Source: an uncultured archaeon (GTDB lineage: Archaea > Asgardarchaeota > Heimdallarchaeia > Heimdallarchaeales > Heimdallarchaeaceae). Taken from it: a stretch of DNA of 11,597 nt. The stretch lies in the NCBI GenBank assembly GCA_964534625.1, contig CAZHRF010000066.1, forward strand, positions 1 to 11,597, in the 5' to 3' direction. Below the pieces are notes generated by a model that ran no database searches, had not been told where the DNA came from, and saw only the letters and a program-made list of their open reading frames with translations. Below, piece after piece: positions 1-11,597 of the stretch. Each line of letters starts with the position of its first letter. Position 1 is the first letter of the stretch. Both the position numbers and the translations under genes were made by a program.

Positions 1-1
1 C

Positions 2-55
2 CGCTCATTTGGTGCAGACTTTATTGAACGATTAGATACATTAGAGTCAGTATAA
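2..55 (+). CDS. 3' end of an upstream gene (partial; ...RSFGADFIERLDTLESV*), product unknown
   Basis: Open frame from window edge to TAA at 53-55, ending 15 nt before the AOR start; too short to identify. Confidence 0.5.
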   Translation, partial: RSFGADFIERLDTLESV

Positions 56-59
56 GAAA

Positions 60-64
60 GAGGT
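60..64 (+). promoter_or_regulatory. Shine-Dalgarno site for AOR-family gene
   Basis: GAGGT ending 6 nt upstream of ATG 71. Confidence 0.7.
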
Positions 65-70
65 TAAAAC

Positions 71-1912
71 ATGTCAAAAACAAAATTAAAAGGTTATACA
101 GGAAAGTATTTAGATATAGACCTCACCACTCAAGAAGCTACAATTAAAGAATTACCAGCGGATTGGCCAAAAAAATATATTGGAGGTATTGGTTTCGGCA
201 TTAAAGTGGCGTGGGACAATATTCCTCAAGATGTTGATGCATTATCATCGAGAAATGTAATAAGTTTTTGGACAGGTCCTTTTACTGGTACAATGGTGCC
301 AGTTTCAAGTAGATATGCTGCGGTAGCCAAATCACCTTTAACAGGAACTATAGGGTTTGATATCTCTTCAGGCTATTTTGGAACTGAGCTTAAACGTGCT
401 GGTTGGGACGGTGTGGTTATACGTGGAAAAGCAAGAAAACCCGTTTATATTTTTATAGAAGACAATGATATTGTTGAATTTCGTGATGCCAAGCAATATT
501 TAGGTAAAAGTACTTGGGAGGTAGAGGATCTTATTAAAGAAGAATTAGATGATCCTTCTATACGCACCTTGACAATAGGTCGTGCGGGTGAAGGTTTGGT
601 TAGATATGCATCTATTACTAACGACAAAAATCAAAGTGTTGGCCGATCTGGAATGGGAGCTGTCATGGGATCAAAGAATCTCAAAGCTATTGCTATCCGT
701 GGAACGAATAATATTGAGGTAGCGGATTTAAATGCTCTTACCAAACAAGCTAAACAATTGTATAAAGAGTGTAGAGATCCAGCTATGCGGGCTGATCAAA
801 TAAGCAATCCTGTGAATATGCTCAAATATAACAAAGAAGGCATACTAACCACAAACAATCATCAACAAATGACATTTGAACATGTAAAAAAAGTTTCAAG
901 TGAAAAAGTGATAGAAAAAAAAGTAAAGAAAATTATCGCGTGTGAGATGTGTCCTGTTGCATGTAATCATATTAGTATTATTGAAGAAGGAGAATATAAG
1001 GGAGCAGTAGGAAATATAGATTTCGAGTCAGTCTGGGCACTAGGACCATTTTTGGGTATAGATACTCTTGATGCCATCACTAAAGCGATTGAATATTGTG
1101 ACACATTAGGAATAGACACCATTTCAACAGGAGGGGTGATCGCTTGGGCAATGGAGTGCTATGAAAAAGGTATTTTTACTAAGGAAGATACTGATGGATT
1201 AGAATTAAACTTTGGGAATCACCAAGCAATGGTAGAGTTAGTCCGACGTATAGGTAACCGAGAAGGAAAATTTGCCTCACTACTCGGAGAAGGATCTAAA
1301 CGGGCAGCACTTCAAACAGGCAAAGATACTATCAAATTTGCCATGCAAATTAAAGGGCTAGAAACAAGTGTTTATCCGTTCCGAGTGATGCAAACACGAG
1401 CTTTAGGTTATGCAACTGGTATTTTAGGTTTTGACCACGGTTTTATTGAAGATAATGAAGTGGATCGTTTTTCATTGGATGATAAAAGAGGAAAATTTGT
1501 GGCTGATAATGAAGATGATAATTCTGTTATTGATTCATTAATTATTTGTAACTTTGGAAGACAAGTTTATCCAAAGAAAGAAAAGTTAGCAGAGATCTGG
1601 AAATGGGTGACAGGTGAAGATATAACATATGAACAACTACAAAGTCGAGGTAAAACAATTAACACTCTCGGAAAATGTTTTAATGTACGTCATGGATTCA
1701 CACGTAAAGACGATTATCTTCCAGCTAGGTCCTATGAAAATGCTTTGGATAACGATAAAAATAAAAAAGTTGTTGTAAAAATGGAACAATGGGATAAAGC
1801 ATTAGACTCCTATTACGAAGAACGCGGATGGGATACCAAAACCAGTATTCCAAAGAAGGAAACGTTGAAGCAATTGGGACTGGAGGAAGCAGCAGAAGAG
1901 GTAGGTGTATAA
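71..1912 (+). CDS. aor: Aldehyde:ferredoxin oxidoreductase (AOR/WOR) family tungstoenzyme large subunit, divergent
   Basis: 613 aa. Family motifs KSPLTG, ELKRAGWD, GRSGMGAVMGSKNLKAIAIRG, CxxCxxxC (CEMCPVAC), CDTLGIDTISTG, DSLIIC (4th Fe-S Cys) and C-terminal YYEERGWD...P.KETL..LGL. Confidence 0.93.
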   Translation: MSKTKLKGYTGKYLDIDLTTQEATIKELPADWPKKYIGGIGFGIKVAWDNIPQDVDALSSRNVISFWTGPFTGTMVPVSSRYAAVAKSPLTGTIGFDISSGYFGTELKRAGWDGVVIRGKARKPVYIFIEDNDIVEFRDAKQYLGKSTWEVEDLIKEELDDPSIRTLTIGRAGEGLVRYASITNDKNQSVGRSGMGAVMGSKNLKAIAIRGTNNIEVADLNALTKQAKQLYKECRDPAMRADQISNPVNMLKYNKEGILTTNNHQQMTFEHVKKVSSEKVIEKKVKKIIACEMCPVACNHISIIEEGEYKGAVGNIDFESVWALGPFLGIDTLDAITKAIEYCDTLGIDTISTGGVIAWAMECYEKGIFTKEDTDGLELNFGNHQAMVELVRRIGNREGKFASLLGEGSKRAALQTGKDTIKFAMQIKGLETSVYPFRVMQTRALGYATGILGFDHGFIEDNEVDRFSLDDKRGKFVADNEDDNSVIDSLIICNFGRQVYPKKEKLAEIWKWVTGEDITYEQLQSRGKTINTLGKCFNVRHGFTRKDDYLPARSYENALDNDKNKKVVVKMEQWDKALDSYYEERGWDTKTSIPKKETLKQLGLEEAAEEVGV

Positions 1913-1913
1913 A

Positions 1914-2450
1914 ATGACTGAAGAAATAGTTGAACAACAAGAACCAATACCACAGAGCAAAAGAAAAATCATCCTCTGTAATACTGACGAGTGTACGGGA
2001 TGTCGTATTTGTGAGTATGTATGTGCAGTGGTAAATGAAGGGGTACAAAACCCTCGTCTTTCCCGCATACGTGTAATTAGAATTGATCCTGTATTTGACC
2101 TTGCATTAGCTTGTCGAAAATGTGAACATCCTACGTGCCTTGATGCATGTGCTCGCAGTGCTATTACACAAGATCCAGTTACCAACATCATACACATTGA
2201 TGAAGAAAAATGTGATGGGTGTGGCTTTTGCGTTGAAATCTGTAACTTTGGTGTGCTGACGATAGGCATTGATAAAAAAGTGTCTTTTGTCTGTGACACG
2301 TGTGAAACGAACAACGATGGAGACCCTGCTTGTGTGCAGTACTGTCCGAAAGAAGCGTTATCGTTTGTTTCTATCGATGACTGTACTGATGAACGGGTGA
2401 AGACCTTTCATCAAGTGTTACAGCAAAATGTTGATGTGTCTGACCAATAA
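1914..2450 (+). CDS. 4x[4Fe-4S] electron-transfer subunit (DmsB/HydN/CooF-like; AOR small subunit)
   Basis: Four Cys groups: CTGCRICEYVC, CRKCEHPTCLDAC, CDGCGFCVEIC, CDTC...PACVQYCP. ATG 1914 preferred over GTG 1905 because AGGTG (1903-1907) sits 6 nt upstream and it begins 1 nt after the AOR stop. Confidence 0.9.
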   Translation: MTEEIVEQQEPIPQSKRKIILCNTDECTGCRICEYVCAVVNEGVQNPRLSRIRVIRIDPVFDLALACRKCEHPTCLDACARSAITQDPVTNIIHIDEEKCDGCGFCVEICNFGVLTIGIDKKVSFVCDTCETNNDGDPACVQYCPKEALSFVSIDDCTDERVKTFHQVLQQNVDVSDQ

Positions 2451-2562: not shown

Positions 2563-2806
2563 GTGAAGGGTATGGATTGTCATTTTTTTTTAACTTAAAT
2601 TTTTAATGCTGTGTTAACTGTATAACTGCTTTTAACATCATTTCCTTATGTTTTCTAAAAAATCTCCATAGAGTAATGTTTATTAATCCTCATATTTCCG
2701 TCGTGCGTAGGTTTAAGCTAAACTTAATGAAGAATAACCAAAAAAAATTTACTTGCAGATGAGTAATATTATGTTCAATTTCATACATACAATTAAAAAA
2801 CAAAAT

Positions 2807-2811
2807 GAGGT
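2807..2811 (+). promoter_or_regulatory. Shine-Dalgarno site pointing to a TTG start at 2820
   Basis: GAGGT lies 8 nt before in-frame TTG 2820; ATG 2805 is preceded only by an A-rich run with no SD. Confidence 0.55.
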
Positions 2812-2819
2812 TTTTACTC

Positions 2820-4421
2820 TTGAGTTTTAATGAAGAACAATATAAAGAACTTCTTAATAGGATAGAGAACTTAGAAGATAAGGGTTTTTCTTCCCAAAAA
2901 GAAGAAATTTTGGCGTTTATTTCAGATACTATGGGCGATAAGAAACTCTCCCGTCAGCTTTCTAAACTTAAATATGTGGAAAATGCTGTGGCAAGAATAA
3001 AAGCACGTACTAAATATTTACGAGATATCAATTTAAAAATAACTTCAAATGAAATCCAAGTTAATAAACAATTATATGTAAATAGTGTACGATTGATTCT
3101 TGATAAGGAGACTTGTTTCCGATGTGAAATCTCCCACTCAATATGCCCGAAAGACGCAATAACCATTGAACGCGGAGAACGTGGTTCAGAACCAGTAATT
3201 CAAGTCGATCATGACAAATGTGTTTTGTGTGGTCTATGCGTACCTTTCTGTCCTTCTGGCTGTCTAAGTCTTTTTGTTGATGATGAAGCAGATCTCCTCC
3301 TTGCAGATTATCAAAGTTTACCTATTTTACCAGAATTAGAGGAGACTAATATTTGTCAAAAATGTGTTAGAGCGTGTGAAAAAGATGCGATAGACTTTAA
3401 CATGCAACCTGAAATAATTGATGATGCCTATGGTACAATCACAGTGGCAACAGGCTACGAAACGTATCCAATAGAAAATATAGGCGAATATGGTTATGGA
3501 ACAATACCTGATGTAATATCGGGGCTACAGTTTGAGCGATTACTGTCTTCTAATGGACCAACGGGAGGAGAGATAAGACGTCCATCTGACGGTAAGCTAG
3601 TAAAAACAATAGTGTTTGTACATTGTGCGGGGTCTAGAGATCCTGCTAAACATCTACCTCATTGTTCAAAAATATGCTGTATGTATTCGACAAAACATGC
3701 TTTACAGTTTAAACATTTAGTACATGATGGGATGGCATATAATTTCTACATAGATGTGCGTACTGCAGGAAAAGATTATGAAGAGTTTTATCAACGCGCA
3801 ACAGAACAAGAAAGAGTTGTGTTTGTTAGAGGAAAAATTTCCGAGCTCCAAGAAGATGGAGATAAGATTTTAGTGCGAGGAGTAAACACACTTACAGCTG
3901 AGACAGTAGAAATTCATGCGGATATGGTGGTTTTAGCAACCGGGCTTATACCTAGCGATGGAACGAAAGAGATAGCTCAATTACTTAAACTCTCTTCTGG
4001 TCCTGCTGGATTCATAAAAGAAGCACACGCTAAATTGAAACCTGTAGAGACCGCTCTTTCTGGCATTTATGTTGCTGGTACAGCAGCAGGTCCAAAAGAT
4101 ATCCCTGAAGTCGTCGCTTCAGCTTCTGGTTCGTCATCTAAAGCCCTTGGCTTATTATCATCTGACTTCCTTGAACGTGATCCTATAATTGCAGTAGTTG
4201 ACGAAACAACTTGTGGTATCTGTATGACTTGTACATATATCTGTCCATATGGAGCAATATCCTTAAATCGCAACACAGGTAAAATTGAAGTAAATGATGC
4301 GTTATGCGAGGGATGTGGTTCTTGCGCAGCAGGATGTCCATCGGGCAGTATTGAATTACGTAATTCAACCTATGGAGCCATAAGTAATAGTATCAAAGCT
4401 TTACTCTCGGAGGTAAGATAA
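2820..4421 (+). CDS. hdrA: Chimeric heterodisulfide reductase subunit A-like protein: unknown helical N-terminus + FwdF-like ferredoxin domain + C-terminal part of HdrA (ORF open from ATG 2805)
   Basis: HdrA motifs from about 3345 on: VATGY, EYGYG, LQFERLLSSNGPTGG, CAGSRD...CSKICCMYSTKHA, FYIDVRTAGKDYEEFY, EAHAKLKPVET, GPKDIP, and a C-terminal 2x CxxCxxCxxxCP. No GxGxxG motif, no FPTxDC motif and no N-terminal HdrA Fe-S domain. Confidence 0.85.
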   Translation: MSFNEEQYKELLNRIENLEDKGFSSQKEEILAFISDTMGDKKLSRQLSKLKYVENAVARIKARTKYLRDINLKITSNEIQVNKQLYVNSVRLILDKETCFRCEISHSICPKDAITIERGERGSEPVIQVDHDKCVLCGLCVPFCPSGCLSLFVDDEADLLLADYQSLPILPELEETNICQKCVRACEKDAIDFNMQPEIIDDAYGTITVATGYETYPIENIGEYGYGTIPDVISGLQFERLLSSNGPTGGEIRRPSDGKLVKTIVFVHCAGSRDPAKHLPHCSKICCMYSTKHALQFKHLVHDGMAYNFYIDVRTAGKDYEEFYQRATEQERVVFVRGKISELQEDGDKILVRGVNTLTAETVEIHADMVVLATGLIPSDGTKEIAQLLKLSSGPAGFIKEAHAKLKPVETALSGIYVAGTAAGPKDIPEVVASASGSSSKALGLLSSDFLERDPIIAVVDETTCGICMTCTYICPYGAISLNRNTGKIEVNDALCEGCGSCAAGCPSGSIELRNSTYGAISNSIKALLSEVR

Positions 4422-4876
4422 TGAGTAAAATGGCAAAAATATCTAAAAACCAAATATTAAATCAAGATCCTAAAGTAATTTTATTCCTTTGTAGATGGTG
4501 TAGTGGAAAAGGTGCAGATTATGCCGGTGTAGCAAGAATGTTATATCCTGCAAATATTTTACCAATAATGGTAAATTGTTCAGGTCGTGTCGATCCACAA
4601 CATGTAGTAGAAGCATTTCTAGAAGGTGCTGATGGAGTGATGATTACTGGATGTCATTTTAATGACTGTCACTATAGAACTGGTAATTACAAGACTTACA
4701 AACGGATGTCAGTATTATTTAAGTTATTCAAACAGTTAGGTATTGATGAGCGAAGATGGAAATTGACTTGGATATCAGCGACTGAGGGAGCTAAATTTGC
4801 TAAAGAAACTACAGATTTTGTTGAACAGCTAAAGTATTTACCCCCTTATGGAAAAAGAAAAGGAGAAGATGAATAA
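4421..4876 (+). CDS. mvhD: Methyl-viologen-reducing hydrogenase delta subunit ([2Fe-2S])
   Basis: FLCRWCS..GAD.AG, VNCSGRVDP, GADGV..TGCH..DCHY..GN, WISATEG. SD GGAGGT at 4409-4414; TAATG overlap with hdrA. Confidence 0.95.
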   Translation: MSKMAKISKNQILNQDPKVILFLCRWCSGKGADYAGVARMLYPANILPIMVNCSGRVDPQHVVEAFLEGADGVMITGCHFNDCHYRTGNYKTYKRMSVLFKLFKQLGIDERRWKLTWISATEGAKFAKETTDFVEQLKYLPPYGKRKGEDE

Positions 4877-5874
4877 TGAAAAAAGTCAATATGGGGATAG
4901 CATTAGGAGCAACATGTGCAGGTTGTGATGTTGCTATTTTGGATTTGAATGAAAAAATATTACCTGTATTCGATTTAGTAGAATTTAAATTCTGGCCAAC
5001 TGCTATGGATTTTAAACTTGATGATCTAAAAGCGTTAAAAGCTAAAGAATTAGATGTTGGGATTTATCATGGGGCTATAAGAACTGAAGAAGATAAAGAA
5101 ATAGCGGAAATACTTAGAGAAAAAGCAAAAGTTATAGTAGCTTTTGGTGCATGTGCAAACTTCGGGGGAATACCCAGTCTTTCCGATTTACCTTTTACTG
5201 AAAATATGTTTGATGTTGTTTACAAAGATGTTCCATCGATGGACAATCCTGAAGGTATTGTCCCATTAGTAAAAACGACAGTTGATGGTACTGAATTAAC
5301 TTTACCTGGTATTAGAAAACATGCAAAAGCTTTAGATTCGGTTATTGATGTTGATTATTGGGTACCTGGTTGTCCACCAATGGTACCACTTATTGAACAA
5401 TTAATAGAAGTTGTGAAAGTATATGCCACAACTGGTGAATTACCACCAAAAGGAACGGTAATAGCAGGTGAAAAAACACTCTGCGAAGAATGTGGAAGAG
5501 AAAAACCTGAACAAATTCTGTTAGAAGATTTTATTACCGCTCAAGAAGCAGACAAAATAGACCCAGATAAATGTCTATTATCTCAAGGTATATTATGCAT
5601 GGGACCTGCAACCCGCGCAGGATGTGGTGGATTATGCACCCATAGAAATGTCGGATGTAGAGGTTGTATGGGAGGAACAAGTGCAGTAAAAGATCAAGGG
5701 TTAAAGATGATATCTGCGTTAACTTCCATGATAGTATTAGATAAAGAAGAGAACCTTGGGGAAGAAAGATTAAGAGAAGTTGTGAATAAAATTGAAGACC
5801 CATTAGGATTATTTTATAGGTTCAGTTTTGGTAAATCACTTATTAGTCAATTACATGCGGAGGAGGAGATTTAA
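4876..5874 (+). CDS. mvhG: F420-non-reducing [NiFe] hydrogenase small subunit
   Basis: CAGCD, AFGACA..GGIP, VPGCPP, CEEC, CLL.QG.LCMGPATRAGCGGLC, CRGCMG; no Tat leader; TAATG overlap with mvhD. Confidence 0.93.
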   Translation: MKKVNMGIALGATCAGCDVAILDLNEKILPVFDLVEFKFWPTAMDFKLDDLKALKAKELDVGIYHGAIRTEEDKEIAEILREKAKVIVAFGACANFGGIPSLSDLPFTENMFDVVYKDVPSMDNPEGIVPLVKTTVDGTELTLPGIRKHAKALDSVIDVDYWVPGCPPMVPLIEQLIEVVKVYATTGELPPKGTVIAGEKTLCEECGREKPEQILLEDFITAQEADKIDPDKCLLSQGILCMGPATRAGCGGLCTHRNVGCRGCMGGTSAVKDQGLKMISALTSMIVLDKEENLGEERLREVVNKIEDPLGLFYRFSFGKSLISQLHAEEEI

Positions 5875-7349
5875 TGGCAAATAAAACGATAAAAATACAT
5901 CCAATTACAAGGTTAGAAGGTTTGGCTAAAATTATAGTTAAACTCAATGACAAAGGAAATGTAGATGATGCGTTCTTTCAAGTAGTAGAATTGCGAGGAT
6001 TTGAACGTTTTGTCAAAGGAAGACCTATAGAAGAAGTGTTACGAATAACTCCAAGAATTTGTGGAGTATGCCCAATCCCCCACCATCTCGCTCCTGCTAA
6101 AGCTTCAGACAGAATTTATGGAGTCGATCCTCCCAAAACAGCTAAAATGTTAAGGGAAGTATTGGCGTTAGGGCACAATCTTCATAGCCATATATTACAC
6201 TTTTATGCTTTTGCACTCCCCGATTTTGTTTTAGGGGAAAAGAAAGAACCTGGAACACATAATATATTAGGATTATATAAGAAATTCCCCGATTTAACTA
6301 AACAAGCTATCAAAATGAGAGGATATGCGCAAAAAATACAAGGAATGATCGGAGCGAAAGCTACACATCCCGTAACTGCTATACCTGGTGGCATAAGCAA
6401 AGGTATAACTAAGAATGAATCTGAAGATATACTAGAAATGGCTAAAGAGATGGTAGAGTTTGGTAAACTAGGTCTAAATACCTTTGACAAATTGGTAGTA
6501 AAAAATGATCAATTAATGTCTCTTATTAATGATGACGCTTACAAAATGACAAGCCATTATATGTCGGTTGTAGGAGAAAAAAATACACTTGACTTTTATA
6601 ATGCTAATACAGTGAGAATTGTTGATACAAAAGGTAAAGAAATAACAAAATTTGAAGCAAAGGACTATTTAGATCACATAGCAGAGCATGTTGAACCATG
6701 GTCATATTTGAAATTCCCCTATCTTAAAGCAAAAGGCTGGAAAGGCATTAAAGATGGAGCTGATAGTGGTCTTTACAGAGTTAATGCGTTAGCAAGGTTA
6801 AATGTTATTGATAAAATTAAGACGCCTTTAGCACAAGATGCAATGGAAAACATGTATAGTGTTTTAGGTGGAAAACCTGCTCATCATACATTAGGATTTA
6901 ATTGGGCAAGACTAGTCGAAATACTCTATTGTGCTGAACGAATGGTAGAATTAGCTGAACAACCAGAAATATATTCAGAGAATTATAGAACAAAAGTCAG
7001 TAAAAAATCAATTACAGGTGAAGGAGTAGGAGTAATTGAAGCACCACGAGGGACGCTTTATCACCATTATAAGACAGATATGGAAGGAAGAGTGACCAAA
7101 GCAAATATTATCGTGGCTACAACAAATAACAATTCTGCAATCTGTTTGAGTGTTAAACAAGCAGCACAAGGAATGATAAATAAAGGGCAATATAATGAGG
7201 ATGTGTTGAATAAAATTGAAATGGCGTTTAGAGCATATGATCCTTGTTTGGCATGTGCAACACATACCCTACCTGGTAAAATGCCTTTAGTAGTAGAAAT
7301 ATACGATAATGACAAGAAATTGATAAAAACTATTAGGCGAGAAAAGTGA
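5874..7349 (+). CDS. mvhA: Group 3c [NiFe] hydrogenase large subunit
   Basis: L1 RICGVCPIPH, His-rich HNLHSHILHFY, EAPRGTLYHHY, L2 AYDPCLACATH followed by a 27-aa cleavable tail. SD GGAGGAG; context with mvhDG and hdr. Confidence 0.95.
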   Translation: MANKTIKIHPITRLEGLAKIIVKLNDKGNVDDAFFQVVELRGFERFVKGRPIEEVLRITPRICGVCPIPHHLAPAKASDRIYGVDPPKTAKMLREVLALGHNLHSHILHFYAFALPDFVLGEKKEPGTHNILGLYKKFPDLTKQAIKMRGYAQKIQGMIGAKATHPVTAIPGGISKGITKNESEDILEMAKEMVEFGKLGLNTFDKLVVKNDQLMSLINDDAYKMTSHYMSVVGEKNTLDFYNANTVRIVDTKGKEITKFEAKDYLDHIAEHVEPWSYLKFPYLKAKGWKGIKDGADSGLYRVNALARLNVIDKIKTPLAQDAMENMYSVLGGKPAHHTLGFNWARLVEILYCAERMVELAEQPEIYSENYRTKVSKKSITGEGVGVIEAPRGTLYHHYKTDMEGRVTKANIIVATTNNNSAICLSVKQAAQGMINKGQYNEDVLNKIEMAFRAYDPCLACATHTLPGKMPLVVEIYDNDKKLIKTIRREK

Positions 7350-7846
7350 GAATTGCTTTAATTGGTCTAGGAAACCCCTATGTTGGAGACGATTCGATAG
7401 GAATAAAGGTAGTAGAGAAGATTCAAGCTAACTATCCTCTACCTAAAAATATAGATGTACTGCCTGATCTTTCCCTATCAGGAATCGGATTAGTGGAGGT
7501 TTTTAGGGGATATGATAAAGTTATAATTGTTGATGCTATCATGACAAAGAATCAGCAAGTAGGGGAAATAGTTGTTTTTACACCAGATGATTTAACAGAT
7601 ACATTGCATACAACTGATTTCCATAATATGGATTTCTTTTCAGCAGTACAATTCGCCAAACAACTTTACAACGATATTCCTGAAGATATAACTCTTGTGG
7701 GAATAGAGATAGAAAAAGCGAACGAATTTACATATGAGATTTCTAACCAATTAAAAAATAATTACAAGAAAATAGTAGATCAAGTTTATTCATTACTCAT
7801 GAAAATTAAAGATAAGGAGATAAAAACAAATGTCAGAATACATTAA
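7346..7846 (+). CDS. Hydrogenase maturation endopeptidase (HycI/HybD family)
   Basis: IGLGNPYVGDDSIG, VIIVDA, conserved His (DFH), LVGIE; GTGA overlap with the mvhA stop. Confidence 0.92.
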   Translation: MRIALIGLGNPYVGDDSIGIKVVEKIQANYPLPKNIDVLPDLSLSGIGLVEVFRGYDKVIIVDAIMTKNQQVGEIVVFTPDDLTDTLHTTDFHNMDFFSAVQFAKQLYNDIPEDITLVGIEIEKANEFTYEISNQLKNNYKKIVDQVYSLLMKIKDKEIKTNVRIH

Positions 7847-8237
7847 AATTGAAGAGGAAGAAAAAGCCTTTATTGAAAAAATAGAAAAAATCTCCGGACA
7901 AAACATTTACAGCTGCTATCAATGCGGTAAATGTAGTGCAGGGTGTGCTTTCAGTCATAAGATGGATAAGACAGTGAACCAGATCATCCACTATATTCAG
8001 ATGGGACAAAAAGAAAAAGTGCTCAATGCTAATACAATGTGGGTTTGTGCAAGTTGTTTGACTTGTACAGTTCGTTGTCCTAGAAATGTTGATGTAGCTG
8101 CACTAATGGAAGCAATAAGGGAGACTATCTTACGAGATAATCCAGAAAAAGTTAAAATTGCTGATATTCCGGATGAAGTATTAGACAAATTACCTAATAT
8201 TGCTTTGGTAGGTAATTTTAGGAAAATGACGGAGTGA
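7830..8237 (+). CDS. hdrC: Heterodisulfide reductase subunit C (2x[4Fe-4S], short form)
   Basis: ISGQNIYSCYQCGKCSAGC and WVCASCLTCTVRCPRNVD; SD AGGAGA at 7815-7820; directly precedes hdrB. Confidence 0.92.
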   Translation: MSEYIKIEEEEKAFIEKIEKISGQNIYSCYQCGKCSAGCAFSHKMDKTVNQIIHYIQMGQKEKVLNANTMWVCASCLTCTVRCPRNVDVAALMEAIRETILRDNPEKVKIADIPDEVLDKLPNIALVGNFRKMTE

Positions 8238-8241
8238 TAAC

Positions 8242-9135
8242 ATGGCAAAATATGCTTATTTTCCAGGATGCAACTTAAAATCAGATGCTAAAGGATTTGA
8301 AGATTCTGCACTTGCTGTATCTAAAACGTTAGGTGGAGAGTTAGTTGAATTGGAAAAATGGAACTGTTGTGGTACAGTTCATACGATGACAGAAGATAAC
8401 CTAATGAAAAGAATAGCCCCAGTAAGAATTCTTGGGAGAACTAAAAACCATATCGAGAAGACAAAAATTAGCCCTGGAAAAGTGGTAACATTATGTTCAA
8501 TGTGTAATAGCACGTTAAAAGTGGTTAACACACAAATGAAAGAAGATGAAGATAAACTCGATACAATCAATTATATGTTGGAAGAAGATCAAGAAGAATA
8601 TGACGGAACTATAGACGTTAAACATTATCTGGAAATTTTACGAGACGAGATAGGTTTTAATAAAATAAAAGCAAAGGTAAAGAAACCTTTGAAAGGATTG
8701 AAAATTTCTCCTTATTATGGGTGTATGCTATTACATCCCGATGAAGCACAGATTGATGACCAAGAAAAACCTTCTGTGCTCGAAAATACAATAGCTAGTT
8801 TAGGGGGAGAAGTTATTCGTTCACCTTATTTCAAATATTGTTGTGGGAGCTATCATGTGTTGGATCAAGAAGACACGGTTAAAGGACAAGTAGAAAGAAT
8901 AGTTGGTGCTGCAAAAAAACGTGGTGCCAATGCAATTGCTGTAGCTTGTCCGCTTTGTGCATTTAATCTAGATAAGAAACAAACCCATATGCTCAAAGGA
9001 GATAATGAAGGGCTTCCAATATTTTACTTTACTCAATTAATGGCAATTGCGTTAGGGGAAAAAGAAGATGTAAATCATTTTGATGATCATGCAATAGATC
9101 CCCGTATTTTACTTAAAAAATTAGGATTAATGTGA
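8242..9135 (+). CDS. hdrB: Heterodisulfide reductase subunit B (two CCG domains)
   Basis: Two complete five-Cys sets: YFPGC...NCCG...LCSMC and YYGC...YCCG...ACPLC; LPIFYFTQLM; SD GGAGTGA at 8231-8237. Confidence 0.93.
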   Translation: MAKYAYFPGCNLKSDAKGFEDSALAVSKTLGGELVELEKWNCCGTVHTMTEDNLMKRIAPVRILGRTKNHIEKTKISPGKVVTLCSMCNSTLKVVNTQMKEDEDKLDTINYMLEEDQEEYDGTIDVKHYLEILRDEIGFNKIKAKVKKPLKGLKISPYYGCMLLHPDEAQIDDQEKPSVLENTIASLGGEVIRSPYFKYCCGSYHVLDQEDTVKGQVERIVGAAKKRGANAIAVACPLCAFNLDKKQTHMLKGDNEGLPIFYFTQLMAIALGEKEDVNHFDDHAIDPRILLKKLGLM

Positions 9136-9140
9136 TAAAT

Positions 9141-9863
9141 ATGGCTAAAGCAAAAGGACAACAATCAAACTCAAATGAGAATGAAACAGTGACCATATAT
9201 GTAATGGGTCAAGGATATGAAGTTCCAGCCACACTAACAATAATGAAGGCTATGGAGTATTCAGGGTATAAATTTACCAGAGGTTCAGGATGTAGAGCAG
9301 GTTTCTGCGGTGCGTGTAGTACAGTATACCGGAAAAAGAATGATTTTCGGTTATATACGGCACTAGCATGTCAAACACTTGTAGAAGATGGAATGGTGCT
9401 TACCCAACTACCTTTTGTACCTGCAAGTAAAGCGAACTACGATATAGATCAGCTAAATCCTTCAGCTAGCACAATATTGAGACATTATCCAGAAGTAGCG
9501 CGATGTCTCAGCTGTAATGCATGTAGTAGAGTTTGCCCCCAAAATATCTCAGTTATGGATTATATTCAATATGCGCTTCAAGGTGAAATAGAAAAATGTG
9601 CTATAGAAAGCTTTGACTGTATTCAATGTGGATTATGTGCAATACGATGCCCTGCAGAGATACCTCAATATCATGTGGCACAGCTAGCTAGACGCTTACA
9701 TGGAAAACATATAATGAAAACACCAGAATATCTTGATAAAAGAATCAAAGAGATAGAAGAAGAAAAATACGATGAAGAATTTGACGAGTTAATGTCAATG
9801 CCATTGGATAAATTGAAGAAACGTTATACAAGTCGTGATAAAGAGTCGAATAAAAAGAAGTGA
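9141..9863 (+). CDS. Fumarate reductase/succinate dehydrogenase iron-sulfur subunit-like ([2Fe-2S] + 2x[4Fe-4S])
   Basis: GCRAGFCGAC...ALACQT ([2Fe-2S]), CLSCNACSRVCP and CIQCGLCAIRCP. Start ATG 9141 (alternative GTG 9132 overlapping the hdrB stop). Confidence 0.85.
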   Translation: MAKAKGQQSNSNENETVTIYVMGQGYEVPATLTIMKAMEYSGYKFTRGSGCRAGFCGACSTVYRKKNDFRLYTALACQTLVEDGMVLTQLPFVPASKANYDIDQLNPSASTILRHYPEVARCLSCNACSRVCPQNISVMDYIQYALQGEIEKCAIESFDCIQCGLCAIRCPAEIPQYHVAQLARRLHGKHIMKTPEYLDKRIKEIEEEKYDEEFDELMSMPLDKLKKRYTSRDKESNKKK

Positions 9864-9868
9864 TGATA

Positions 9869-11527
9869 ATGAGTTTAATTGATGGATATACAGAAGAAAT
9901 GAGAAAATCTATCGAAAAGGTAGAAAAAACAAGAAGTAAAAGAAGAAATGAAGTGGTTGAACATCTGTCATTGGAAGAAAGAGATGAGGTACTAAAAAAC
10001 TACCATCCTGATTTTAATCCTAAATTAAAACGAGAAATTTCTTATGGTCCTAACAAAGGAGACAAAGTACCATTAGAAGTTGCTGATGTTCTCGAAGCGT
10101 ATCCCGTTATTAATCCCGATGATATTGACCTCTCAGTAATAGATTATGATGTAGGAATACTAATTATTGGTGCTGGAGGTGCAGGAACTTCTGCTGCCTT
10201 ATGGGCTTTATATTCTGGAGTACCAAAAGAAGATATTCTTGTGTCTAGCAAACTTAGACATGGAGATTGTAATAGTGTTATGGCTCAAGGAGGAATACAA
10301 GCAGCAGATAGACCAGTAGATTCACCGGCTATACACTACATGGATGCTCTAGGTGGAGGACACTTTACAAATGATCCCGAACTCGTAAAGGCACTTGTTG
10401 AAGATGCACCGAAAATAATCAAATGGCATAAAGAACTCGGAGTTCAATATGATCTTAATCCAGACGGTTCATTTATTGAAAACCCGGGTGGTGGAACAAG
10501 CAGAAATAGAATGCATTGCGCTAAAGACTATACTGGTTTGGAGATCTTACGTACAGTTAGAGATGAATTCGTTAATCAAGAGATACCTATATTAGAATTC
10601 TGTCCAGCCATTGAATTACTAACAAACAAATCTGGAAGCGTAGCAGGAGCAATCTTATATAATCTAGAAACGAAACAATACTTTGTAGTAAGGGCAAACA
10701 CAGTCATTCTTGCAACTGGTGGATTTGGAAGATTACATGTCGCAGGATTTCCAACAACTAATCATTATGGAGCAACAATGGATGGAGTAGTTATGGCTTA
10801 TCGAGCCGGTGCAAAACTTGCTCATTTAGACTCGAATCAGTTCCATCCAACAGGAGCAGCTTTTCCTGAACAAATTGTAGGGCTGTTAATTACTGAAAAA
10901 GTAAGAAGTTTAGGGGGTCAAGTATTAGACTCAAATGGGGAACAAATTTGTTATCCTCTAGAACCAAGAGACATAGAAGCAGCTTCGATAATTAAAAATT
11001 GTACATCAACAGATAATTACATAGAAACACCAACAGGAACAAGAGGAGTGTGGCTAGATTCACCTTTGATAGAAGAGATAAAAGGAAAAGGGACAATAAA
11101 GAAAAATTTGGCTGCAATGGATAGAATGTTCCAAAGATTTGACATAGATATAACAAAAGATCCTATATTGGTGTATCCAACTCTACATTACCAGAATGGA
11201 GGAGTAGTACTGGATAAGGATGGGCATAGTACTGTGCCTAGATTACTCATAGCAGGAGAAGTATCTGGCGGTGTGCATGGTAAGAACCGTTTGATGGGTA
11301 ATTCACTCCTAGAAATTAATGTTTTTGGAAGAAGAGCAGGAATTACAGCTGCAAACGAATATAAAACAGGTAGATTGGGAAAACTATCATTAGACCATGT
11401 GAAAAATACAACAGAAAAACTCCAAGAACTAAAAATACCTAGAAAAAGATTTTCACCCATGCTATTACCAGAATATAGAAGAGATAGTCAAAGAGAAAGA
11501 CTTGTAAAATTGTATGAAAGTCTTTAA
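9869..11527 (+). CDS. Fumarate reductase/succinate dehydrogenase flavoprotein-like (SdhA/FrdA/TfrA/NadB superfamily)
   Basis: ILIIGAGGAG, SVMAQGGI, VILATGG, QFHPT, LITE, PRD, PTLHYQNGG, AGEVSGGVHGKNRLMGNSL. Start uncertain (9860 GTG, 9863 or 9869 ATG). Confidence 0.9.
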   Translation: MSLIDGYTEEMRKSIEKVEKTRSKRRNEVVEHLSLEERDEVLKNYHPDFNPKLKREISYGPNKGDKVPLEVADVLEAYPVINPDDIDLSVIDYDVGILIIGAGGAGTSAALWALYSGVPKEDILVSSKLRHGDCNSVMAQGGIQAADRPVDSPAIHYMDALGGGHFTNDPELVKALVEDAPKIIKWHKELGVQYDLNPDGSFIENPGGGTSRNRMHCAKDYTGLEILRTVRDEFVNQEIPILEFCPAIELLTNKSGSVAGAILYNLETKQYFVVRANTVILATGGFGRLHVAGFPTTNHYGATMDGVVMAYRAGAKLAHLDSNQFHPTGAAFPEQIVGLLITEKVRSLGGQVLDSNGEQICYPLEPRDIEAASIIKNCTSTDNYIETPTGTRGVWLDSPLIEEIKGKGTIKKNLAAMDRMFQRFDIDITKDPILVYPTLHYQNGGVVLDKDGHSTVPRLLIAGEVSGGVHGKNRLMGNSLLEINVFGRRAGITAANEYKTGRLGKLSLDHVKNTTEKLQELKIPRKRFSPMLLPEYRRDSQRERLVKLYESL

Positions 11528-11570
11528 TAGTCTATTTCCTTATTCTTTTAACTTTTTTTCATATTTCCGT
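11528..11570 (+). terminator. Probable T-tract terminator of the hdr-mvh-frd operon
   Basis: Pyrimidine-rich run with T7 (11553-11559) right after the stop; no GC hairpin. Confidence 0.55.
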
Positions 11571-11597
11571 AAACACTTTCTAACAACGAGAGTCTCC

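Follow-up and report, generated by a model that had tools for sequence, protein, structure and literature searches.

The locus described here contains the same subunit families, in the same order of electron flow, as the MvhADG-HdrABC complex of hydrogenotrophic methanogens, for which structures have been solved (5ODC and 8RVU). Like that complex, it encodes MvhD, an MvhA with intact NiFe motifs, an HdrC with two [4Fe-4S] motifs and an HdrB with two CCG domains, and its relatives encode a full FAD-binding HdrA. Methanogens also have TfrAB, a soluble, non-quinone enzyme of FrdA-like and FrdB-like parts with CCG domains, in which TfrB is a fusion of FrdB-like and HdrB-like parts and which runs a thiol cycle with CoM and CoB. 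Type E SQR and MFR enzymes (SdhABE(F)) combine an HdrB-like CCG subunit with an SdhAB-like pair, as our locus does. They associate with the membrane, are linked to quinones and have a canonical SdhA, whereas in our locus a hydrogenase and HdrA accompany the pair. One example is FrdABEF of Syntrophobacter fumaroxidans (PMC3570798).

Fumarate reductases linked to Flx-Hdr have been proposed as a Flx-Hdr-FR 'succinate operon' in Pseudoclostridium thermosuccinogenes (PMC7282089) and a korABCD-tfrAB-Hdr-Flx cluster in Ca. Endoriftia persephone (PMC11636981, PMC13147460). In these proposals a two-gene, anchor-less pair stands beside HdrABC, often with a 2-oxoglutarate:ferredoxin oxidoreductase, and fumarate serves to drive ferredoxin reduction; we found no purified complex of this kind in the literature. 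For Asgard archaea, the electron acceptor of Mvh-Hdr has been termed 'unidentified' (PMC11291895), and Sifarchaeia have been suggested to run a Tfr thiol cycle (PMC9723677).

Here we analyse one whole contig (11,597 nucleotides, the window) of a metagenome-assembled genome (MAG) of the Heimdallarchaeaceae (Asgard, Heimdall group). A preliminary description of its operon knew of no characterised complex with such a composition, but the concept of a fumarate reductase coupled to Flx-Hdr is already in print (PMC7282089; PMC11636981; PMC13147460). The donor in the window is a [NiFe] hydrogenase rather than FlxABCD, and the likeness drawn here to the P. thermosuccinogenes and Endoriftia enzymes is at the level of published gene content.

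A nine-gene hydrogenase, Hdr and fumarate-reductase-like operon

Nine contiguous, co-directional ORFs run from hdrA' to frdA-like, each with the expected Pfam or NCBIfam matches (Table 1), as had been described. Junctions of 5 nt or less had been claimed throughout, which holds for all (overlaps of 1-4 nt, gaps of 4-5 nt) except the protease/hdrC overlap of 17 nt. The start of hdrA' had been placed at 2820; we place it at ATG 2805, as its paralogue P0126 opens with an identical MRFL..SFNEE. The frdB-like gene probably starts at ATG 9141 and the frdA-like gene probably at ATG 9869, the latter yielding a 552-aa form. Nucleotide similarity of 77% to the paralogous polyferredoxin-like gene on contig C9 extends from 58 nt upstream of the hdrA' ATG through 3350, and the shared leader may have promoter function. 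At the other end, the downstream terminator described earlier could not be confirmed: we looked for a stem-loop 3' of the frdA stop and found none, and the only terminator-like trace is a T7 run inside the terminus of an IS110-family element. That terminus has six copies in the genome, five at contig ends, and the internal copy adjoins a Transposase_20 ORF. As assembled, the window also carries an AOR and a ferredoxin-like gene upstream of the operon.

Table 1 Features of the operon and its flanks in the window.
Feature	Position	Strand	Evidence or remark
Promoter-proximal leader	2747..2804	+	Shared with paralogous polyferredoxin-like gene on contig C9
hdrA' (538 aa), chimeric gene	2805..4421	+	Polyferredoxin-like N-half and HdrA C-part
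241-bp exact repeat, also in intact hdrA on contig C58	3598..3838	+	Longest exact run
mvhD, [2Fe-2S] electron-transfer subunit	4421..4876	+	PF02662 FlpD E 1.7e-45; VhuD 99.5 bits
mvhG, [NiFe]-hydrogenase small subunit	4876..5874	+	PF01058; VhuG 184 bits
mvhA, [NiFe]-hydrogenase large subunit	5874..7349	+	PF00374; VhuA 393 bits (cut-off 800)
Hydrogenase maturation endopeptidase	7346..7846	+	PF01750; TIGR00072 105 bits, above cut-off
hdrC-like, two [4Fe-4S] motifs	7830..8237	+	Fer4_8/17; two CxxCxxCxxxC motifs
hdrB-like, two CCG domains	8242..9135	+	PF02754 twice; all ten Cys
frdB-like Fe-S subunit	9132..9863	+	Weak Fer2/Fer4 matches; TfrB profile positions 19-86
frdA-like flavoprotein	9860..11527	+	PF00890 over residues 100-483; best HMM TfrA
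IS110-family element terminus, at contig end	11546..11597	+	Multi-copy; holds T7 run 11553-11559

The hydrogenase and Hdr parts retain their cofactor motifs. MvhA has RICGVCPIPH at residue 61 (RxCGxCxxxH), DPCLACATH at residue 456 (DPCxxCxxH) and a C-terminal tail for the maturation protease, and is closest to the Mvh/Vhu, F420-non-reducing type. The HdrC-like protein scores below cut-off against both HdrC (TIGR03290, 65.7 bits) and QmoC (69 bits), as does the HdrB-like protein against HdrB (TIGR03288, 144 bits) and SdhE (NF042965, 140 bits; cut-off 500). Even so, all ten CCG cysteines of the HdrB-like protein are invariant in 35 homologues, and it matches solved HdrB chains (E 1e-31). In contrast to MvhADG-HdrABC, the window's subunits all score under the methanogen equivalog cut-offs, a FrdBA-like pair is appended, and no CoM/CoB marker or Mcr genes were found in this genome.

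Two absences noted in the preliminary description are borne out by our analysis: the operon contains no flx genes, and in its proteins no stretch of 19 residues is hydrophobic enough for a typical membrane helix. The genome, which is 89.8% complete, likewise yielded no matches to McrA, to the CoM biosynthesis marker ComA or to the Sdh cytochrome-b anchor (Sdh_cyt). It does encode SucCD, an ACL-like pair, a Kor-like 2-oxoacid:ferredoxin oxidoreductase (OFOR) and, on contig C42, a canonical SdhAB-FumC cluster, whose SdhA scores 765 bits (cut-off 567).

A flavoprotein with conserved fumarate-site residues

The family of the FrdA-like protein is very large and highly conserved, its archaeal and bacterial members showing 55-76% identity. 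The protein falls below every curated cut-off (TfrA, the best HMM, 298/718 bits; SdhA/FrdA, 253/567; NadB, 246/452), has an N-terminal extension of ~75-95 aa and a truncated C-terminus, and lacks the Sdh C-terminal domain (no PF02910). All six dicarboxylate-site residues (H329, T345, E346, R370, H443 and R477) are nevertheless invariant in 47 family members, although L-aspartate oxidase has these same residues, as do and related flavoenzymes. An Asn (N138) occupies the covalent-FAD His position; non-covalent FAD is typical of fumarate-reducing, not succinate-oxidising, enzymes. The predicted structure (pLDDT 84) aligns over residues ~76-536 with solved fumarate reductases (Z 33-35; rmsd 3.0-4.3 A over 385-428 residues), with E. 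coli FrdA as the top Foldseek match (E 2e-29); urocanate reductase and ketosteroid dehydrogenases are also structural neighbours (Z 28-33). The invariant site and these matches uphold the fumarate-reductase-like identity given to this protein earlier.

Its FrdB-like partner has one [2Fe-2S] and two full [4Fe-4S] motifs, the 12 cluster cysteines of which are invariant in 43 homologues. The TfrB profile is covered by the FrdB-like (19-86), HdrC-like (178-219) and HdrB-like (263-471) proteins in turn, and, since TfrB is a fusion, this provides Rosetta-stone evidence that the three act together. The window differs from TfrAB in that these parts are split over four genes with a separate HdrC. Structure prediction, which had been suggested as a check, weakly supports an HdrB-FrdB contact: the predicted complex scored 0.57, compared with 0.00 for the best of three controls, with at least 88% of contacts shared between runs and partner pLDDT of at least 79. 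Of 80 solved complexes 58 reach this mark, as do 2 of 110 mismatched pairs, but scores of 0.60 or less include only 7 of the 80 and both passing mismatches.

The core is conserved and its donor modules are exchanged

Among 53 loci from other genomes, each with at least 7.5 kb upstream, the hdrC-hdrB-frdB-frdA core is kept in 42 and hdrA is present in 43, with a Kor-like OFOR in 29, mvhGA in 21 and Flx (NADH) in place of Mvh in 11. The proposed mvhDGA-hdrCB-frdBA synteny, accompanied by hdrA in nearly every case, is thus strongly recurrent across distant lineages, occurring in Asgard, Thermoplasmata, Methanofastidiosum, Desulfurococcaceae, Acetothermia, Thermotogae and Anaerolineae; in Methanofastidiosia the core also stands alone. 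Sister genomes have the order OFOR-HdrA(657 aa, FAD Rossmann)-MvhDGA-protease-HdrCB-FrdBA. Sister Heimdall genomes also have Flx replacing Mvh beside the same FrdBA family, suggesting that H2 and NAD(P)H can stand in for each other as inputs. The FrdA tree shows at least five swaps of donor module; in its Asgard clade, the Flx type is nested and the Mvh type is basal.

A chimeric hdrA' that lacks the flavin-binding half

More than a shortened gene, hdrA' is a chimera. Its first 182 residues correspond to the N-half of a polyferredoxin-like protein (75% identity to P0126), whereas residues ~200-538 are an HdrA C-part (81-100% identical to P0128) comprising the second half of the thioredoxin-reductase-like domain and the C-terminal ferredoxin domain. 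Unlike HdrA of MvhADG-HdrABC, it has neither the N-terminal domain nor the FAD Rossmann motif: it matches solved HdrA over chain residues 248-655 only, and covers only positions 179-287 of Pyr_redox_2 (Pfam), where full HdrA copies match 3-81. From its sequence, we predict that hdrA' cannot bind FAD canonically. This architecture had no other case among 5.8 billion proteins and was absent from 30 family genomes, making it a new element of the locus in this genome.

A reciprocal chimera (P0127) and an intact Kor-hdrA both lie on contig C58. Both chimera junctions fall in non-identical sequence and both break P0126 at residue 182, as a single reciprocal exchange predicts. All chimera segments have a pairwise dN/dS of 0.13-0.21 (dS 0.3-1.15), indicating that the copies are old and constrained. 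The 241-bp repeat may be a gene-conversion tract, but could also be where the assembly crossed over. The window is matched perfectly (100%) by three independent Logan assemblies over 3809-11549/11572, from the end of hdrA' to frdA-like. All three matches break at 3809, 30 nt inside the 3' edge of the repeat, so that the joining of the hdrA' 5' part to the remainder is the work of the MAG assembler. The link from the chimera to mvhD runs across this repeat and may therefore be a mis-join.

A candidate H2-fed, quinone-independent fumarate reductase

We consider it somewhat better than an even bet that the operon encodes a soluble, quinone-independent, H2-fed and Hdr-wired complex that reduces fumarate, and that in its relatives probably bifurcates to ferredoxin. 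MvhAG would oxidise H2, and electrons would pass via MvhD and an HdrA-type subunit to the two [4Fe-4S] clusters of HdrC and the two CCG-type clusters of HdrB. HdrB would hand them on, with no intermediate, to the FrdB-like subunit, and the last carrier would be the FAD held non-covalently by the FrdA-like subunit, converting fumarate to succinate. The ancestral, widespread form of the cluster has a full-length FAD-binding HdrA and a co-encoded Kor-like OFOR, the conservation of which points to ferredoxin as a co-product. With full HdrA, exergonic fumarate reduction would most likely drive ferredoxin reduction by flavin-based electron bifurcation, fumarate taking the role held by CoM-S-S-CoB in methanogens. 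Of the soluble, quinone-free H2:fumarate system proposed earlier, synteny, site residues and the lack of an anchor in the genome searched favour the outline, but the conserved HdrA and OFOR point beyond it to bifurcation. In this genome, the flavin half of hdrA' appears to have been lost by reciprocal exchange with the polyferredoxin gene, and a flavin site would be needed from another source: in trans from the intact HdrA or P0127 on contig C58, or in cis if the contig is mis-joined at the repeat. Otherwise the complex would be a non-bifurcating H2:fumarate oxidoreductase here. Against this reading count the failure of the FrdA-like protein at the TfrA, SdhA/FrdA and NadB cut-offs, the predicted lack of canonical FAD binding by the operon's own HdrA', and the SdhA-SdhB-fumarase cluster, which could be the genome's real fumarate enzyme.

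A split Tfr is rather unlikely. Mvh-Hdr would then reduce a low-molecular-weight or protein disulfide at HdrB, and FrdBA would reoxidise the thiols by means of CCG clusters of the HdrB type, like those of methanogen TfrB, with fumarate as the final sink of a diffusible shuttle. TfrAB operates in this way with CoM and CoB, TfrA is the top HMM for the flavoprotein, and the ten invariant CCG cysteines form the disulfide-reducing site in solved HdrB; a Tfr/Hdr-Mvh version has been put forward for Sifarchaeia (PMC9723677). However, one HdrB per operon would both reduce and oxidise the shuttle, futile unless in separate complexes; the genome yielded neither ComA nor McrA, the operon has no carrier gene (for example, DsrC-like), and strict hdrCB-frdBA adjacency and the TfrB fusion favour one complex. 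It also seems unlikely that the same complex runs in reverse, confurcating succinate and reduced ferredoxin to H2 at low H2 pressure. Such quinone-free succinate oxidation would serve a syntrophic fermenter in which the breakdown of amino acids or 2-oxoglutarate yields the succinate, and the adjacent OFOR, or else AOR, supplies the reduced ferredoxin. The mean potential of ferredoxin and succinate/fumarate lies well above H+/H2 unless H2 is very low, the Asn138 flavin site is typical of fumarate-reducing enzymes, and the ACL-like pair and SucCD are compatible with a reductive route, although a published reading of Asgard Mvh-Hdr is that it confurcates and evolves H2 (PMC9723677), the OFOR adjacency and the upstream AOR and ferredoxin-like gene would fit, and the genome yielded no quinone-linked anchor.

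Distinctly improbable, in our judgement, is a different substrate, such as another enoate or dicarboxylate or, as in NadB, an amino acid, with the C42 SdhAB-FumC as the fumarate/succinate enzyme. The sub-cut-off scores, remodelled termini, urocanate reductase and ketosteroid dehydrogenase neighbours and that bona fide cluster suit it, but the fumarate site is invariant in its two His, two Arg and Thr-Glu, fumarate reductases are the best structural matches, an Fe-S partner is present where NadB needs none, and Kor-like OFOR adjacency suits succinate/2-oxoglutarate chemistry. We regard as very improbable that the operon is crippled or decaying in this genome, with hdrA' an uninformative by-product of rearrangement or mis-join. 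The unique architecture, the exact repeat at the critical join, the IS110 copies and repeats at contig ends in this genome would accord with decay, but nine of nine frames are intact, every chimera segment is constrained, and the junctions outside identical sequence and common break fit a single reciprocal exchange.

The combination of hydrogenase, Hdr and a membrane-free fumarate-reductase-like pair in one operon is thus a widespread design with a predicted function. If that prediction is true, fumarate could be the acceptor long looked for in the Hdr complexes of organisms other than methanogens.

Organization of the gene cluster

The window spans the whole of contig G000:C66 (11.6 kb), part of a 3.37-Mb MAG that is 89.8% complete, and the nearest protein relatives are labelled Heimdallarchaeaceae. 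ORF coordinates and profile matches confirmed the nine tightly packed genes in one row that the preliminary description had reported, with the start of hdrA' moved from 2820 to 2805. Gaps or overlaps of at most 5 nt had been described throughout; this holds for all junctions but one (1-4-nt overlaps or 4-5-nt gaps), the exception being the protease and hdrC genes, which overlap by 17 nt. A 354-nt AT-rich gap separates the upstream Fer4 gene from hdrA'. A membrane-helix-like segment is absent from all nine proteins, in line with the earlier view that a transmembrane subunit is missing. The downstream terminator described previously was not recovered, as no hairpin was found after the operon and the only candidate, a run of seven Ts, is part of a repeated element. 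Scans for sigma-70 promoters and hairpin terminators carry no information for an archaeon, and their hits were no more numerous than in shuffled sequences.

Features of the window and of related hdrA genes in the same genome
Feature	Location	Strand	Remarks
Aldehyde:ferredoxin oxidoreductase (AOR)	71-1912	+	upstream of operon
Poly-Cys ferredoxin-like gene (Fer4)	1905-2450	+	upstream of operon
hdrA'	2805-4421	+	538 aa
mvhD	4421-4876	+	
mvhG	4876-5874	+	
mvhA	5874-7349	+	
Hydrogenase maturation protease	7346-7846	+	
hdrC-like	7830-8237	+	
hdrB-like	8242-9135	+	
frdB-like	9132-9863	+	
frdA-like	9860-11527	+	
Multi-copy element terminus	11546-11597		also at ends of contigs C14, C33, C42 and C91; internal in C20 (L126)
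P0128, intact HdrA	C58:1890-3848	-	652 aa; directly after four-gene Kor-like OFOR (L036)
P0127, reciprocal chimera	C58:80-1342	-	420 aa; directly after P0128; contig end 80 nt beyond

The closest characterised system is MvhADG-HdrABC of methanogens. The window resembles it in that MvhA carries both NiFe-binding motifs and a cleavable tail, MvhG and MvhD are present, the HdrC-like protein has two [4Fe-4S] motifs and the HdrB-like protein has two complete CCG motifs, with all ten CCG cysteines kept. It differs in its HdrA', which lacks the N-terminal and FAD parts, and in its genomic setting, as neither McrA (PF02249) nor ComA (PF02679) was found in the 89.8%-complete genome, with positive controls.

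An anchor-less fumarate-reductase-like pair

The frdA-like product (hereafter the flavoprotein) matched only one domain, PF00890, over residues 100-483. Its best curated model was methanogen TfrA (NF004900; 298 bits, cut-off 718), and the window further differs from TfrAB in that the frdB-, hdrC- and hdrB-like genes are separate, whereas TfrB is one fusion. Residues were assigned by alignment to solved SdhA chains and by a 47-sequence family alignment. Like canonical SdhA/FrdA, the flavoprotein has the dicarboxylate-site residues H329 (the His of HPTG), T345/E346, R370 (the proton-donor Arg), H443 and R477, all invariant in the family alignment. Unlike them, it scores 253 bits with TIGR01812 (cut-off 567), lacks the Sdh/Frd C-terminal domain PF02910 and has an invariant N138 where the covalent-FAD His would stand. 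The FrdB-like protein carries one [2Fe-2S] motif and a pair of full [4Fe-4S] motifs, each of them invariant. As the main reading, NadB was set aside on the basis of HMM score (TIGR00551, 246 bits, cut-off 452.75) and the Fe-S partner, and a quinone-linked complex II was rejected because no anchor was found, either in the nine proteins or, as an Sdh cytochrome b, in the 89.8%-complete genome. Type E Sdh and MFR, defined in part by their association with quinone and membrane, also differ from the window, in which the HdrB-like protein reaches 140 bits with the SdhE model NF042965 (cut-off 500) and no hydrophobic segment was found.

The AlphaFold model of the flavoprotein is confident, N-terminal extension included (pLDDT 84, pTM 0.86). 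It superimposes on soluble flavocytochrome c3 fumarate reductases over model residues 76-503 (Z 35, rmsd 3.0 Å, 391 residues) and on E. coli FrdA over model residues 93-536 (Z 33, chain residues 0-510 of 577). The flavoprotein therefore carries ~75-95 extra residues at its start and lacks the final part of FrdA.

Distribution and exchange of electron-input modules

Full-length matches to the flavoprotein (55-76% identity) were found in 592 species-representative genomes across many archaeal and bacterial phyla. The best 80 loci were annotated with the window proteins together with proteins of Flx (the NADH input module) and 2-oxoacid:ferredoxin oxidoreductase (OFOR) from relatives; the counts rest on the 53 of these with at least 7.5 kb upstream. 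The preliminary description had proposed a search for conserved synteny, which bore out the arrangement: hdrC, hdrB and frdB accompany the flavoprotein gene at 42 of 53 loci, and mvhG and mvhA at 21 of 53, every one of which also has hdrA and the hdrC-hdrB-frdB-frdA core. In total, hdrA is present at 43 of 53 loci, OFOR at 29 of 53 and Flx genes at 11 of 53. The cluster is a genuine one, and its conservation is strong.

The four-gene core occurs on its own in Methanofastidiosia. Heimdallarchaeaceae have two forms, OFOR-hdrA(657 aa)-mvhDGA-protease-hdrCB-frdBA (for example, in Ca. Heimdallarchaeum aukensis) and OFOR-flxDCBA-hdrA-hdrCB-frdBA. In a FastTree of the flavoprotein, judged by local support values only, the donor type switches at least five times, and within the Asgard clade Mvh loci are basal, with Flx loci nested. 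A functional core of HdrA-HdrCB-FrdBA with an exchangeable module for electron input would be expected to give such a distribution.

Several individual loci stand out. One from Thermoplasmata (JAWAEP010000032.1, 7140-8032) keeps mvhD and the maturation protease with no mvhG or mvhA between them. Another from Asgardarchaeia (L017, 2624-4591) has ~2 kb without a called gene yet with a tblastn match to HdrA, possibly because an in-frame stop or a selenocysteine codon misled the gene caller. In L048, from a relative labelled Thorarchaeota that falls inside the Heimdall clade on the tree, a second hdrA lies between mvhA and the protease gene (5472-7450), so hdrA duplications within this cluster type occur elsewhere. 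The flavoproteins of a Spirochaetaceae-labelled and a Thermoplasmatota MAG (L079 and L080) are near-identical (branch lengths ~0.01), which suggests a binning error or very recent transfer.

A probable reciprocal exchange in hdrA

HdrA' aligns to solved HdrA over chain residues 248-655 only, and we found no GxGxxG motif, N-terminal cluster domain or FAD Rossmann segment in its sequence. P0128 and the HdrA orthologues of relatives do have the N-terminal cluster domain and the thioredoxin-reductase fold that binds FAD, which is the bifurcation site. Residues 1-182 of HdrA' are 75% identical to the N-terminal half of P0126, a 308-aa polyferredoxin-like protein encoded on contig C9, and the remainder is 81-100% identical to the C-terminal part of P0128. 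P0127 has the reverse composition, with HdrA residues 1-294 (FAD motif included) followed by P0126 residues 182-303. P0126 is broken at residue 182 in both chimeras, matching the prediction of a single reciprocal exchange. Such an exchange could have been an inversion following duplication of hdrA in tandem, or an excised circle of hdrA could have integrated. Every chimera segment pair has dN/dS of 0.13-0.21 and dS of 0.3-1.15, and the copies are therefore old and constrained. Among 5.8 billion proteins, there was no second case of the HdrA' architecture, which is also absent from 30 family genomes, and its N-terminal part occurred elsewhere only in ~300-aa stand-alone ferredoxins. The window is a rearranged, less clean example of the cluster type.

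Chimeric assembly at either of the recombination junctions was dismissed, as the flanks are only 77-85% identical to the paralogues. A further point at which assembly matters is window 3598-3838, which is identical to the hdrA gene of C58 over 241 nt and at which three independent k-mer assemblies end exactly. The locus is present in sequencing runs SRR7048219/20/27. A cross-over by the MAG assembler at this repeat would mean that the true operon is the ancestral OFOR-hdrA(full)-mvhDGA-...-frdBA, with both chimeras side by side behind AOR-Fer4. To tell the two repeat configurations apart, each flank of the two hdrA copies was compared with orthologues; the differences were 1-4%, and the flanks point, weakly, to opposite answers. 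When HdrA' (P0005), its predicted 274-aa contig-end fragment, P0127 and P0128 were looked up as exact sequences, none was on record, and the chimeras are therefore without independent assembly support. In either configuration, the intact HdrA of this genome could serve the complex.

Other repeats surround the operon. The first 55 nt are the same in the window and in contig C3, so the two contigs are branches of one assembly-graph node. The AOR-ferredoxin pair (window 1-2450) has a paralogue at C3:1-2782 with 86% nucleotide identity overall, including a 482-nt exact repeat in the Fer4 gene (window 1935-2416). The internal copy of the element at the contig end adjoins a 135-aa ORF with an IS110-family Transposase_20 domain, and one contig from the independent Logan assemblies runs from window 11549 into C26 sequence, leaving the downstream neighbour ambiguous. 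The repeats at 1-55, in the Fer4 gene and at the contig end are signs of a repeat-rich assembly graph.

Proposed electron flow and alternatives

We somewhat favour, as the best reading of the cluster, an H2-fed, fumarate-linked Hdr complex. By analogy with the solved MvhADG-HdrABC, electrons from H2 would reach the HdrA flavin, from which one branch would lead to ferredoxin and the other through HdrC to HdrB. Because the FrdBA pair is appended, CoM/Mcr genes were not found and the Kor-like neighbour is constant, the cluster suggests fumarate rather than heterodisulfide as the high-potential acceptor and reduced ferredoxin as the useful product. The alpha subunit of the Kor-like OFOR scores above the NF006412 cut-off, and the next-best models for its alpha and beta subunits are 2-oxoglutarate types. 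Bifurcation is likely in the relatives and uncertain in this genome.

Direct wiring between HdrB and FrdB is supported by methanogen TfrB, a single fused polypeptide that spans the FrdB-, HdrC- and HdrB-like proteins of the window, and only weakly by a complex prediction for HdrB-FrdB, which scored 0.57 (best of three controls, 0.00). Of 80 solved complexes, 58 attained this mark, as did 2 of 110 mismatched pairs; scores of 0.60 or below were those of only 7 of the 80 solved complexes and of both mismatches that passed. Between runs, at least 88% of contacts were in agreement, with partner pLDDT of at least 79. A thiol shuttle is a possible substitute for direct wiring, and a Tfr-based thiol cycle with Hdr-Mvh has been suggested for Sifarchaeia (PMC9723677). 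The complex could also run in reverse, in the confurcating direction. It is likewise possible that the FrdBA-like pair acts on another substrate, for which the main argument is a canonical SdhAB-FumC cluster in the same genome. There (C42:16000-19861), SdhA, SdhB and a class II fumarase are encoded in a row with no adjoining membrane-anchor gene, and SdhA scores above the TIGR01812 cut-off and has the PF02910 C-terminal domain.

The genome also encodes SucCD and an ACL-like pair. On contig C45, a gene for a 434-aa ATP-grasp protein adjoins one for a 716-aa protein with CoA-ligase and citrate-synthase domains (L124, L125); the two resemble a pair of the ATP-citrate lyase or citryl-CoA synthetase type, and such a pair would be consistent with a reductive TCA route.

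Relation to known systems and significance

The closest concept is the Flx-Hdr-linked soluble fumarate reductase, proposed but not purified. It has been put forward for P. thermosuccinogenes (in a passage of PMC7282089 citing a 2019 preprint) and for the tubeworm symbionts Endoriftia (PMC11636981; PMC13147460). By gene layout, the window is like these cases in having anchor-less frdBA contiguous with hdrCB, hdrA and an input module, which is Mvh here and Flx there. For a sequence link to the P. thermosuccinogenes enzyme, a Clostridia-like member of the flavoprotein family served as query, and the matches listed included no named one. No description of a hydrogenase-linked version was found in the literature searched. 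MvhADG-HdrABC is a routine annotation in papers on non-methanogenic archaea, Asgard included, which leave the acceptor open, one naming 'an unidentified heterodisulfide compound' (PMC11291895).

The conserved joining of the Mvh-Hdr genes to a fumarate-reductase-like pair and a Kor-like enzyme offers fumarate as a concrete, assayable candidate and makes the question of the Hdr acceptor directly testable. Tentatively, and with doubt as to the whole, non-methanogenic archaea, Asgard archaea among them, may use fumarate as the missing high-potential acceptor of their Mvh-Hdr complexes, with one soluble complex splitting H2 electrons between fumarate and ferredoxin and feeding the neighbouring 2-oxoglutarate synthase; in this genome, exchange with a polyferredoxin gene would have split the bifurcating HdrA into two chimeras that may reassemble. 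Whether HdrA can receive its flavin half from a separate source is a question for which the hdrA' chimera serves as a natural experiment. Such a complex would define a new class of electron-bifurcating enzyme, free of membranes and quinones, with bearing on redox balance and on C4/C5 acid fixation or degradation in H2-dependent or H2-producing relatives of the eukaryotic ancestor. If the joint reading is true, a segment of the reductive TCA cycle would run without a membrane and save energy.
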